Made by a program: the position numbers and the translations under genes | Shown: one piece after another, positions 19,558-22,637 of the stretch | How positions within the stretch are numbered: the stretch's first letter is position 1 | Layout: every line of letters starts with the position of its first letter | Assembly (NCBI GenBank): GCA_015233495.1 | Contig: JADFXQ010000001.1 | Span: 2,790 to 66,789 of the forward strand | Origin: Candidatus Omnitrophota bacterium | Lineage (GTDB): Bacteria > Omnitrophota > Gorgyraeia > Zapsychrales > Zapsychraceae | Length of the DNA: 64,000 nt | Direction of reading: 5' to 3' | The notes under the pieces: model-generated | What the model was told of the DNA's origin: nothing | The model's input: the letters and a program-made list of their open reading frames with translations, nothing else | Databases searched by the model: none

Positions 19558-19585
19558 CGCGGTTTTTTTATGCGATGTTGATGAT
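19558..19585. repeat. left 28-bp direct repeat CGCGGTTTTTTTATGCGATGTTGATGAT (copy of the addA 3' end)
   Basis: Identical to 22610-22637. Confidence 0.8.
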
Positions 19586-19606
19586 TTTTCTTTTAACAAC
19601 GAAGGT

Positions 19607-20731
19607 TTAATGAGCCACAATCTTTTTTTGTTTTTCAGTGATTTTTACTGGGATGCTTTCTGGGATGCCAGCCCCCACCGCCATGGCCCAGTAAAAATAC
19701 GCCTCGGGAACAGCGCCTTTAAGCTTCTCAAGGATCTTGAACTTATCAGGGAAAGCGAGATTCTTCACGGCATCCATATCAACCCGCTTGACCAGCTTCC
19801 CGGCCCTGCCCTGACGCAACACACTGATAACATAAACTATTCTGGCAAGTGCAACCTTGATATCCTCTGTCCTCAATTTAGCCCGAAGATAATTGGCGAC
19901 CTTGGCATTGCCATCATTCAAAAGCTTGATCTCCGCAAACGCATCATTGCCTCCACGAACCAGAAATTGCGAATACCGAAATGCAATTTCCTCAATATCG
20001 CTGAAAAGCTCATCGGTGGCATATGCGCTCTGCCTGAACCCGTTCTCGACTGCGACAGTATTCAGAAATGACCGCTTTAACTCCTCCACGTCCTCAACAA
20101 CCTTAAAAAGCTCGCCAAGATCAACGATCTGTTTCATGAACTCCGGCGTCCGATCCTGCTCCAGCGGGATTCCCATCGTCTTCGGCGATATGGCTGTCAA
20201 CTTATCGCCCAAAAGCCCCTCCACAGAAGGGATCCTGACAACGCCTCCTGCGCCGGAAAATGCCATCGGATGCCGGGCGATATCCTTTTCAAAAAACTTC
20301 CCGTAAGGAGCGTCTGTAAAAACCACATCCAATAACACATACTGCTGTAGCTTTGAAAAATGTGACGTGAAAGGAAATTTGAAATGCGCCTTCGGAATCT
20401 TCTTATTCTTTCGGTGGCTCTCTTCGATGCCTTCAAACCATTCGGAATCCGCGGCCATCTGCGCCAACCTCTGCGACAAACCTTCTTTTTCAGCAGGCGG
20501 AAGAAGAATATCGATATCAATCGAAAGTCGTGCCGGTGGAAAAATATGAAGCAACAACGATGTCCCGCCTTTAAAGACAAGACCGGGATAACACTTCACA
20601 ACCTCGCTCAAAAGATTGAACGCGTAAACAGATTTCTCAAATATACCCGGATCCTTAAACCCCAGCTCATTCCTTAAGGATTCCATCCGGTCACGATCAA
20701 TGATCCGCTTTGCCATGCCCATCCTTGCCAT
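19607..20731 (-). CDS. abiEii: AbiEii/AbiGii-family nucleotidyltransferase toxin (DUF1814)
   Basis: FKGGTSLLLH...RLSIDIDIL nucleotidyltransferase motifs. Confidence 0.7.
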   Translation of the reverse strand: MARMGMAKRIIDRDRMESLRNELGFKDPGIFEKSVYAFNLLSEVVKCYPGLVFKGGTSLLLHIFPPARLSIDIDILLPPAEKEGLSQRLAQMAADSEWFEGIEESHRKNKKIPKAHFKFPFTSHFSKLQQYVLLDVVFTDAPYGKFFEKDIARHPMAFSGAGGVVRIPSVEGLLGDKLTAISPKTMGIPLEQDRTPEFMKQIVDLGELFKVVEDVEELKRSFLNTVAVENGFRQSAYATDELFSDIEEIAFRYSQFLVRGGNDAFAEIKLLNDGNAKVANYLRAKLRTEDIKVALARIVYVISVLRQGRAGKLVKRVDMDAVKNLAFPDKFKILEKLKGAVPEAYFYWAMAVGAGIPESIPVKITEKQKKIVAH

Positions 20732-21470
20732 AGGTTACTTTCGACACATTTTCCAAAAGTGTGCCAAAAGTAACTTCTTTAATGCCAATCTTTTCAATGA
20801 GTTGTGACAATATGACTTCTAGGTTCCTCGAACGTCTGGCATATCTAACCAAGTCCCCCACGTGCACTCTGTAAAAGTCATCGATGCTTTCCAAAAGCTC
20901 CCAATAATCGGCGTCACCCATGGTGGAAAACTTGTCCTTGATGGCAAACAGATCAACAAGCATTTTTTCAACCGCGGGCGAATGACCATGGCGCGGCGAT
21001 CCCTTGAACAATGCTTTGACAACAATCGGATCCTTTGTGATATCAAATCCTTTTGGCGCCAGACGACCGGGCTTATCCACCAGCACATACCGATAATCAC
21101 GGGAAAGACTGTCCGCAACAGAATGAACGCCGTCATATTCCACTTCTACGAACGTAATGTGATGCGTCTGCTGATGGTGATAATACGGCTGGAAGCACAG
21201 CGTATTCCATACAATAAAATCAAGATCAGGATAATGCTTCTTAATCAACCGCTTGATATCAGCCACGCGTCTTTTGTCTTCCGGACGAAATTCTTTCTTG
21301 ATAGAACTATAGATGCCTCGCCCCGCAGGAAACACGATCCCCTCCTGCTTCAACTCCTGCAGATAATTCTTGGCAAGCTGAACGCTGATACCAACCGCTT
21401 TCACAATCTCTACAAGGCTGAAATAGCGATGACTCGTCGCATATTCTTTTAGTAAGACTTTTTTATTCAA
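20697..21470 (-). CDS. abiEi: AbiEi-like antitoxin / transcriptional regulator (N-terminal wHTH)
   Basis: Lies upstream of and overlaps abiEii; N-terminal wHTH (SLVEIVKAVGISVQLAKNYLQEL); length fits AbiEi. Confidence 0.55.
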   Translation of the reverse strand: MNKKVLLKEYATSHRYFSLVEIVKAVGISVQLAKNYLQELKQEGIVFPAGRGIYSSIKKEFRPEDKRRVADIKRLIKKHYPDLDFIVWNTLCFQPYYHHQQTHHITFVEVEYDGVHSVADSLSRDYRYVLVDKPGRLAPKGFDITKDPIVVKALFKGSPRHGHSPAVEKMLVDLFAIKDKFSTMGDADYWELLESIDDFYRVHVGDLVRYARRSRNLEVILSQLIEKIGIKEVTFGTLLENVSKVTYGKDGHGKADH

Positions 21471-21658
21471 CGCGCACCTCTTTCAACTTGCCGTTCGGAG
21501 CTCAATTATACCCTCCCGGAATAAAATGACCACCCGAACAATCCTCCCCTGCAATTTACCGCAACAAATAAACGGTCAATTGTTTGCTTAGGGACTACAA
21601 CGCCATCTTTAACTTGTTCTCATGACTTTCTGCACATCAACGATATACTGCCACCAGT

Positions 21659-22444
21659 TCACAAAATCGGATGATTAAGTTGGATATGTTCCCGGGCTTT
21701 GATTTCAGCAAGATCGAAAAATGCCGATACCATGCGATTAAGACGGAACAATTCATCTTCTTTCAGATAATTTTTGGCGATTTTAGTTTCTGATTTTATC
21801 GGGATCTCACCGGCAAAAATCGTTAACCCCATAAAATCTTTTTCCGCATCTATCCGCGAATAAATCGTTTCCGCGCTTTTGGCATCATAATCAATGCTTG
21901 TCGAGTATAAGTCCAGCACCTGGCGATATAACACCTTGTCGCTGCTGCGGATATCGCGAATCCGGTCGAGCAGTTCCTTCCAGTAATTCCCCCCACCCAG
22001 ATTTTTAAGCCGCTCGTCATCCATGGTGAAACCCTTGACAATATACCCCAGCAAACGCGCGGTAGCCCACTGCCTGAAACGGGTAGCAATGGATGATTTG
22101 CTACGGTATCCTAATGAAATAATCATATCAAGATTGTAATGCTCGATATCATAGTTTTTGCCGTCTGGGGCAGTTGTTCGGAATTTCCGAACAACTGAAT
22201 TTTTATCCAACTCTCTCTCTTCAAAAATATGCTTGATATGTTCGCTGACATTTGCTTTGCTGGATTGAAACAAGTCAACCATTTGTGCTTGAGTCAGCCA
22301 TACTGTTTCATGTTCAACCCGCACAAAAAAACGCAGGTTCCCATCACCATTTTCATAGATGATGATTTCATGATCTGAATAGCTGTTTGCTTTAGCTGGT
22401 TTTTTAATGTATTCATGCGATTTTGTCCCCTCTATATCAGACAC
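21659..22444 (-). CDS. rhuM: RhuM-family protein (Fic/DOC-associated 'virulence protein' family)
   Basis: ETVWLTQAQMVDLFQ...HYNLDMIISLGYRSKS...RFRQWAT blocks are typical of RhuM. Confidence 0.65.
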   Translation of the reverse strand: MSDIEGTKSHEYIKKPAKANSYSDHEIIIYENGDGNLRFFVRVEHETVWLTQAQMVDLFQSSKANVSEHIKHIFEERELDKNSVVRKFRTTAPDGKNYDIEHYNLDMIISLGYRSKSSIATRFRQWATARLLGYIVKGFTMDDERLKNLGGGNYWKELLDRIRDIRSSDKVLYRQVLDLYSTSIDYDAKSAETIYSRIDAEKDFMGLTIFAGEIPIKSETKIAKNYLKEDELFRLNRMVSAFFDLAEIKAREHIQLNHPIL

Positions 22445-22609
22445 TGTCTCATCAATCGCCGTGCGCAGTTTGTTTTGCCGGGCAACAATGACTTTGATCT
22501 CGGCATGGTAAATGCCAGATCGGCCTTGCTCTTTGGCGCCAAATCTGCCCGTATGTTGGCACTCACAATAATCAACATCTGATGAATTATAACAATTTTT
22601 GAGCTATTT

Positions 22610-22637
22610 CGCGGTTTTTTTATGCGATGTTGATGAT
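22610..22637. repeat. right 28-bp direct repeat; covers the last 8 codons and stop of addA plus a T7 run
   Basis: Identical to 19558-19585. Confidence 0.8.

Follow-up and report, generated by a model that had tools for sequence, protein, structure and literature searches.

In a 64,000-nt stretch of a metagenome-assembled genome (MAG) contig from a Candidatus Omnitrophota bacterium (hereafter, the window), exact 28-bp direct repeats enclose a segment of 3,024 bp that lies between an AddA-like and an AddB-like gene and carries genes of the RhuM, AbiEi and AbiEii families. On balance, we read this islet as a decayed integrative island that has lost its integrase but retains both of its attachment sites, attL and attR, in the manner of cis-mobilizable elements (CIMEs). 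The gene order of the region is addA-like gene, right repeat, RhuM gene, AbiEi-like gene, AbiEii gene, left repeat and addB-like gene, all on the minus strand, with a tRNA gene on the plus strand. The islet has a GC content of about 45% (~40-50%), compared with 52-58% in the addA and addB flanks, which supports the view that it is compositionally foreign DNA inserted at the 3′ end of addA. Together with this foreign GC content, the anatomy that we count in favor of integration consists of the exact repeats, which have a sharp edge on one side and similarity that fades out toward addA on the other, the preserved 3′ end of the target gene, the lack of inverted ends, the lack of mobility genes and the wreckage found between the repeats.

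Two copies of the addA end flank the islet

Within the 64-kb window, there are exactly two copies of the 28-mer CGCGGTTTTTTTATGCGATGTTGATGAT, at positions 19558-19585 and 22610-22637, both on the plus strand and in direct orientation. This exact repeat had been reported by an earlier, sequence-only reading of the same DNA and is borne out here; no third copy was found in the window at up to 3 mismatches, none appeared in 100 dinucleotide shuffles, and chance would predict none. A looser scan of the window gave no third copy at up to 8 mismatches either, the closest sequences having 9. On the addA side alone, imperfect similarity between the two copies reaches a further 8 bases (36 nt at 94%); on the other side it ends abruptly. 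Scanning of metagenome and viral collections with the 28-mer returned 0 matches.

The minus-strand reading of the repeat, ATC ATC AAC ATC GCA TAA AAAAACCGCG, corresponds to five addA codons (IINIA), the stop codon and 10 nt of 3′ flank. Since the addA stop codon is located at 22620-22622, the att-like right copy (22610..22637) holds the last five codons of the gene, its stop and this short flank, and not the last eight codons plus stop, as had been claimed. The addA open reading frame (ORF) closes normally (IINIA*) within the right copy, with a C-terminal length similar to that of its relatives. The left copy (19558..19585) is composed of the 3′ arm and T-run of an intrinsic terminator, which belongs to a tRNA-containing RNA module described below, plus the displaced addA end. 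This terminator, convergent with addA, is intact at the left copy, and its T-run shares bases with the duplicated stop codon of addA.

The same overlap, between the stop codon of addA and the T-run of the RNA-module terminator, is seen in the reconstructed empty site, so that the insertion point would be a zero-spacer, tail-to-tail junction between addA and the RNA module. The duplication leaves both 3′ ends, that of addA and that of the RNA module, intact. The earlier description of the target as the 3′ end of a protein gene thus stands as far as the addA end is concerned, but it is too simple, as the junction is shared with the terminator. Neither repeat analysis nor reading of the ends revealed terminal inverted repeats on the islet. 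A 19-nt inverted partial match to the repeat at 22568-22586 lies near a relic of hsdM and was not taken as a recombinase site.

The islet parts two genes that adjoin in relatives

The AddA-like gene (22620..25808, minus strand) encodes a UvrD-family helicase of 1062 aa with the Pfam domains UvrD-helicase and UvrD_C and an intact C-terminus that ends in the right repeat. The protein matches NCBI MBF0531486.1, of a Candidatus Omnitrophica MAG, at 100% identity, with the NCBI start placed 4 codons later; the RhuM ORF corresponds to MBF0531485.1, the adjoining accession. The AddB-like gene (16358..19249, minus strand) encodes a PD-(D/E)XK nuclease of 963 aa (Pfam PDDEXK_1) and directly follows addA in relatives. 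The best NCBIfam matches were a RecB-like helicase for AddA, with 308 bits against a cut-off of 650, and addB_alphas for AddB, with 77 bits against a cut-off of 486. Both scores are below the equivalog level, and the predicted pair is called AddAB-like only, from the conserved gene pair and its domain make-up.

Gene order was compared with 80 Omnitrophota-type loci that encode relatives at 39-49% amino acid identity, 74 of which contain both addA and addB. In these 74 loci, the two genes share a strand and addB comes after addA, with a median of 39 nt between them; 57 loci have a gap of no more than 100 nt, 13 have one of 101-500 nt and just 4 have a larger one. The proposal that the insert splits two normally adjacent genes is therefore borne out at the level of gene order (gap below 500 nt in 70/74 relatives), with the addition that a 308-bp tRNA module outside the repeats also parts addA and addB in the window; no tRNA gene lies between addA and addB in the 19 relative loci scanned. 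None of the 74 relatives carries AbiEi, AbiEii or RhuM near addA-addB within the fetched flanks.

Because the AddA relatives are so distant, their gene order can be compared with that of the window but an att sequence cannot, and the search for an uninterrupted addA-addB junction, which had been suggested earlier, yielded the adjacency of the genes and not a comparable junction sequence. The next-best AddA in a search of 5.8 billion protein clusters is 47% identical, which leaves an empty site absent from the data. The four relatives with large gaps hold inserts of 1.7-2.2 kb made of membrane or glycosyltransferase-type genes with native GC content. As these four inserts are devoid of defence genes, the idea that the addA-addB gap is a general defence hotspot was ruled out.

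Islet cargo includes the relics of a restriction-modification locus

The islet is a patchwork of three or more unrelated segments, whose breakpoints coincide with ORF borders. Pfam matches within it were limited to AbiEii, DUF6577 and RhuM, which confirms the gene families assigned by the sequence-only reading, with the correction that RhuM is a truncated remnant preceded by a relic of hsdM. A Pfam scan of 46 window ORFs, all three islet ORFs included, detected no recombinase or transposase domain, and the islet has no Pfam match to a transposase, Cas1 or rve domain. The earlier statement that the islet lacks an integrase thus holds, and a recombinase recognizing the 28-mer elsewhere, which had also been envisaged, did not turn up among these 46 ORFs.

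Next to the right repeat, two out-of-frame fragments of a type I restriction-modification (R-M) methylase gene, hsdM, were detected at 22430..22542 (minus strand) by tblastn with the HsdM protein of locus L087, where an intact hsdM stands upstream of a RhuM gene whose product is 73% identical to that of the window. The fragment LAPKSKADLAFTM at 22504-22542 shows 13/13 identities to this HsdM (E=1e-4), and the C-terminal 26 residues of HsdM are recognizable at 22430-22507, in frame into the RhuM ORF (15/26 identities, E=4e-5). A 40-nt DNA match also supports the relic. The adjoining RhuM-family ORF (21659..22444, minus strand; 261 aa) matches PF13310 in two stretches (E=4.6e-65). Comparison by tblastn with two homologous proteins (P0244 and P0245) revealed an in-frame internal deletion of a conserved 23-aa block (PESIRFFKTVQNKLHYAINKQTA in P0244), and homology stops ~75 residues short of the normal C-terminus. 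Full-length homologues measure 330-347 aa; the window ORF falls short of this length and is considered a remnant in which the domain is still recognized.

RhuM-like proteins inside R-M operons are a described arrangement (PMC3710099). As in hsdM-rhuM-hsdS/hsdR loci such as L087, the C-terminus of hsdM lies directly upstream of rhuM in the islet, and the window RhuM is 73-75% identical to full-length Omnitrophota homologues; it belongs to a wrecked type I R-M locus. Unlike those loci, the islet keeps ~110 nt of hsdM in two frames, without hsdS or hsdR. Given this state of hsdM and a RhuM gene without its 23-aa block and C-terminal quarter, the R-M/RhuM part is almost certainly dead.

Between the RhuM remnant and abiEi, a 196-bp segment (21481-21676) had no detected relatives and carries a putative sigma-70-like promoter, TGGTCA-16-TATAAT (21505..21532, minus strand), upstream of abiEi. 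At the right edge of the islet, a candidate extended -10 promoter motif read from the sequence, TGTTATAAT (22586..22594, minus strand), faces the hsdM/RhuM relics; it is missing from the consensus promoter scan because it has no -35 match. No terminator was predicted after addA, the right repeat being without the 5′ arm of the hairpin. With the loss of this hairpin, addA transcription would probably read through into the islet.

Some further observations concern RhuM and its relatives. At 22171-22197, the part of the RhuM gene that codes for the conserved motif SVVRKFRTT forms a perfect palindrome of 13+13 nt (CAGTTGTTCGGAA T TTCCGAACAACTG); this palindrome is conserved at the DNA level at 6397-6423 of L086 and 8280-8307 of L087 and, on the other strand, was marked as terminator-like. 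In L087, a small GIY-YIG ORF (7663-8017) lies between hsdM and rhuM, and HsdM and the GIY-YIG protein both end in DPIR*, suggestive of an insertion of the homing-endonuclease type accompanied by a short duplication. In L086, a DUF4143 ATPase gene adjoins a full-length RhuM gene.

The AbiE pair appears intact and separately mobile

The remaining cargo is a two-gene AbiE unit on the minus strand. The abiEi-like antitoxin/regulator gene (20697..21470) is intact and encodes a 257-aa protein of the DUF6577 family (PF20217, E=7.7e-43; PADLOC AbiEi, E=1e-35). It is followed by abiEii (19607..20716), which encodes a DUF1814 nucleotidyltransferase toxin (PF08843, E=3.2e-19; PADLOC AbiEii, E=1.9e-76 over the full model), and the two ORFs overlap by 20 nt. 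The AbiEii translation displays the catalytic motif GGTSLLL...RLSIDIDIL (GGT...SIDID).

Over exactly 21480-19673, the pair shares 93.6% DNA identity, free of gaps, with an AbiE pair on a 3.6-kb ENA contig (L081). This homology begins at the abiEi ribosome-binding site and finishes two codons short of the normal abiEii stop. As it ends at 19673, the last 22 residues of the window AbiEii form a non-homologous tail; homologues are 349-351 aa long. In L081, the context of the pair consists of folK and an rve_3 fragment, and the contig has neither RhuM nor the 28-mer. Four more distant AbiE pairs (L082-L085; 66-68% DNA identity) have the same two-gene extent, which supports the view that AbiE is a separately mobile two-gene unit. 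A fixed RhuM-AbiE cassette was ruled out, as the AbiE loci L081-L085 lack RhuM and the RhuM loci L086 and L087 lack AbiE. With AbiE travelling alone and RhuM coming from a wrecked R-M locus, the three genes do not form a fixed unit, and the islet is both more decayed and more mosaic than had been thought. The dN/dS values relative to L081, 0.13 for abiEi and 0.12 for abiEii, are indicative of purifying selection and consistent with both genes being functional. To judge from these sequence features, AbiE looks alive and would be the only plausibly active cargo today.

The unit resembles AbiE/MenAT systems, for which a mechanism is known in relatives (PMC3985639, PMC7450476, PMC10435456), in that it is a bicistronic, overlapping antitoxin-toxin operon with a DUF1814 toxin and a PADLOC AbiEi match. 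The order of the overlapping genes, with AbiEi upstream of AbiEii, is also that of L081-L085. Unlike classic AbiE, the window antitoxin belongs to Pfam DUF6577, not AbiEi_4, and the toxin has a 22-aa tail made by a breakpoint. MenT toxins block translation by nucleotidylating the 3′ (acceptor) ends of tRNAs (PMC3985639, PMC7450476, PMC10435456). By analogy, AbiEi, as a helix-turn-helix antitoxin and autorepressor, would repress the operon and neutralize AbiEii, while freed AbiEii would halt translation, probably through nucleotidylation of tRNA 3′ ends. The outcome would be plasmid-addiction-like stability together with abortive-infection defence.

Origin of the islet

In the scenario that we favor, the attP site of a circular element would have recombined with an attB site of 28 bp or more by conservative site-specific recombination, attB spanning the tail-to-tail junction between addA and the terminator of the tRNA/anti-tRNA module. 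A crossover within the shared core would have generated attL and attR, seen today as the two 28-bp copies, with the addA frame and the terminator remaining intact. The 8 nt of fading similarity on the addA side would be expected if attP mimicked the target gene's terminal portion. The original cargo would have comprised at least a type I R-M locus with embedded rhuM and presumably an integrase of its own. Later deletions would have taken the integrase, most of hsdM, the remaining R-M system and the 3′ end of rhuM, and the abiEi-abiEii bicistron, mobile as a two-gene unit among Omnitrophota, would have replaced the lost part. The resulting element would not be self-mobile and could move only if the integrase of a related element acted on both att copies (cis-mobilization). 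The sequence-only reading had proposed a decayed or trans-mobilized integrative islet targeting the 3′ end of a protein gene; its decay, its foreign insertion and its position at the addA 3′ end are supported, and its site-specific origin is what we still infer.

CIMEs, which provide the closest comparison, are decayed ICE (integrative and conjugative element) or IME (integrative and mobilizable element) derivatives, which are devoid of an integrase and keep attL, attR and cargo (PMC5704250). In streptococci, they measure 1.2-13 kb and are found at the 3′ ends of fda, rpsI, rpmG, rplL or tRNA genes (PMC7563491, PMC5704250). The islet is likewise a few-kb segment without integrase or transfer genes, bounded by direct repeats and with cargo kept, inserted at the 3′ end of a gene that remains intact, and its size is within the 1.2-13 kb range (PMC7563491). 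Unlike them, it is hosted by an Omnitrophota MAG and not by Firmicutes, its target is the junction between a protein gene and a small-RNA terminator, and neither a parent element nor a cognate integrase is known for it.

Several points weigh against this interpretation. CIMEs have been found mainly in Firmicutes and in tandem with a live ICE or IME, whereas the islet is solitary. The data searched yielded neither an empty site nor a parent element, an integrase or a further copy of the 28-mer, so that the recombination mechanism has to be argued from the anatomy of the islet. In addition, the AddA relatives are at most 47% identical and show gene order, not att sequence, and our inspection covered 64 kb of the 187-kb contig, not the rest of the MAG.

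The same end product could come from a Campbell-type single crossover driven by host RecA-dependent or short-homology recombination, with no dedicated integrase, if a circle carried 28-36 bp identical to the addA/terminator junction, as might an earlier imprecise excision product from another cell. The repeats would then be the homology block (28 exact bp within 36 nt at 94%), in keeping with the failure to find an integrase and with a locus that itself encodes an AddAB-type recombination enzyme. However, the presence of addA sequence on the incoming DNA would still require a prior event, the sharp left boundary within a hairpin arm resembles a defined crossover site, and 28 bp is about the lower limit for efficient RecA-dependent recombination, which counts against a route that we consider unlikely. 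The mosaic structure of the islet could also reflect growth in situ, in which the addA-terminator junction was first duplicated by replication slippage or unequal crossing-over and foreign genes were then gathered between the copies by illegitimate recombination, the R-M/RhuM locus preceding AbiE. This is made somewhat more credible by the 3′ end of a serpin gene, also duplicated, 6 kb away by a Fic fragment, which indicates that duplication and deletion have been active in the region. Growth in situ would nonetheless require that rare events struck the same few bases independently at least twice, and leaves the landing of foreign DNA precisely between the copies without a reason, whereas decay after a single integration explains the mosaic equally; we find it distinctly unlikely.

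As the source is a MAG contig, an assembly artefact or a population mixture was also considered, in which a separate molecule, either a 3.05-kb circle or a strain variant, was threaded through a shared 28-mer node. The repeat length of 28 equals k-1 for k=29, a value commonly used in metagenome assemblers, and no second independent assembly of the locus was found. On the other hand, the final assembly k is normally far above 29, which would call for reads that span the junctions, and the path, having left the chromosome at the 28-mer, comes back to it there and restores a coherent locus of addA, tRNA module and addB. This return implies that the islet DNA truly carries the 28-mer, whether integrated or as an excised circle, and the 28-mer is a real shared site under either reading; an artefact strikes us as very unlikely. 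Direct repeats around an inserted segment would also be left by a transposase- or casposase-like enzyme that duplicated its target with a 28-nt stagger. This is hardly credible, given that known target-site duplications span ~2-15 bp, that the islet has neither terminal inverted repeats nor a domain of the transposase, Cas1 or rve kind, and that fill-in would not make the imperfect, one-sided similarity beyond the repeat. A transposon or insertion sequence was rejected on similar grounds (no inverted repeats at the ends, no transposase domain and a 28-bp duplication). An integron cassette was set aside as well, the left hairpin being the terminator of the tRNA module, conserved in another organism, and not an attC site, with no integron integrase present.

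A tRNA-Val(AAC) gene and a candidate anti-tRNA adjoin the left repeat

The RNA module whose terminator forms part of the target spans 19287-19577 on the plus strand. It includes a tRNA-Val gene with anticodon AAC (19336..19409; ARAGORN; Rfam tRNA, 56.5 bits), which lies outside the repeats and has its own promoter (19292-19319), followed by a hairpin with the loop CCCGGAA (19415-19450) and a conserved sigma-70-like promoter, TTGAAA-17-TATATT with the TG of an extended -10 (19469-19497). Downstream, an antisense segment of ~36 nt (19505-19540) is complementary to the D and anticodon arms of the tRNA, and an intrinsic terminator (19540..19577) closes the module with a stem-loop at 19540-19565, an 11-bp stem with 7 GC pairs, and T7. 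A search of the metagenome collection with a degenerate tRNA pattern identified one other organism only, at locus L088 (6255-6531) and the identical L089 (7209-7485). The L088 series consists of a promoter, tRNA-Val(AAC), a CCCGGAA-loop hairpin, a second promoter, an antisense segment, which measures 25-40 nt across the modules, and an equivalent terminator, set among housekeeping genes including gltB and gltD.

Substitutions in the anticodon stem between the window and L088 tRNAs are mirrored in the antisense segments, and the intervening hairpin shows compensatory changes at 5/11 shared pairs. For the full segments, pairing of tRNA with antisense is predicted at -49.0 and -49.7 kcal/mol; trimming of the antisense to 45 and 35 nt gives -47.8 and -41.0 kcal/mol, compared with -16 and -19 for shuffles (sd ~3). 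Among 14 other tRNAs from the window and the fetched loci, none had an inverted match of even 8 nt within 300 nt downstream, and Rfam reported only the tRNA over the region. Both module tRNAs have A34 (AAC), G37, a mismatched 31-39 pair (C.A in the window, C.C in L088) and the discriminator G, a set of predicted features that is atypical for bacterial tRNA-Val. A tRNA with A34 other than tRNA-Arg(ACG) is unusual in bacteria. The module, known from two independent loci so far, is more unusual than the islet and, judging from covariation and predicted pairing, could be a hitherto undescribed small RNA directed against tRNA.

A palindrome with 27-nt arms (19287-19334), situated between addB and the tRNA gene, contains the strong plus-strand promoter of the tRNA, TTGACA-16-TATGAT (11/12 matches), and, on the other strand, a promoter TTTACA-17-TATAAT facing addB. 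This stretch could be a shared divergent control region replacing the usual addA-addB coupling.

Separately, 18 nt of the junction hairpin (GGTCATTCGACCGCGGTT, 19547-19564) match the minus strand within the abiEi ORF (20970-20987) at 17/18 positions. The abiEi site is coding, and the L081 copy, with its 93.6% identity, keeps 16/18 positions. A match of this kind would hit the junction hairpin with a chance of roughly 1e-4; we treat it as a probable coincidence, for which we offer no explanation.

Surroundings of the locus

The second duplicated gene end in the region is a direct repeat of ~60 nt (47 nt at 94%) at 12356-12416 and 13965-14024. One copy forms the last ~21 codons of the serpin gene (12349-13563, minus strand), and the other is a frameshifted relic of that same C-terminus and stop, upstream of the serpin gene and of a Fic-like C-terminal fragment of 76 aa (13560-13790; PF21247, E=4e-24). 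The repeat could mark another decayed insertion or be what is left of a tandem duplication.

Immediately downstream of addB, a low-GC stretch (~40%; 13600-16400) encodes a HicA toxin (14512-14757; PF07927), its likely HicB partner (14280-14519) and two ORFs without family match (14759-15415 and 15412-16413). With the islet on the other side, addB is therefore bordered by variable regions at both ends. Also noted in the window were two AAA ATPase genes that stand alone (54390-55604 and 39472-40797), of the types AAA_14/DUF4143 and ATPase_2/DUF234; these types often occur in variable genome regions.

Implications

The islet has the look of a decayed integrated mobile element and, as such, is a neat case of a known kind rather than a new one. 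Its interest lies in its host, since Omnitrophota is a candidate phylum known almost only from metagenomes, with barely described mobile elements, in which att-flanked, integrase-less island remnants are now documented. It also offers a view of defence-gene turnover, in which an R-M/RhuM locus decays and AbiE enters as a promoter-less two-gene unit.

Two further readings, to which even jointly we give little credence, would carry more weight if true. If the att copies were live in trans, the locus would represent a minimal integrase-less slot for defence cassettes at a tail-to-tail junction between a gene and a small RNA in Omnitrophota. Alternatively, the position of the islet may be non-accidental, because it abuts the tRNA module and the AbiEii family modifies tRNAs; the tRNA/anti-tRNA pair would then be a new regulatory RNA unit, possibly tied to tRNA-targeting conflict systems. 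The tRNA module, if real, might represent a novel type of tRNA-directed small RNA, and the 28-mer provides a concrete candidate att site for tracing the cognate integrase.

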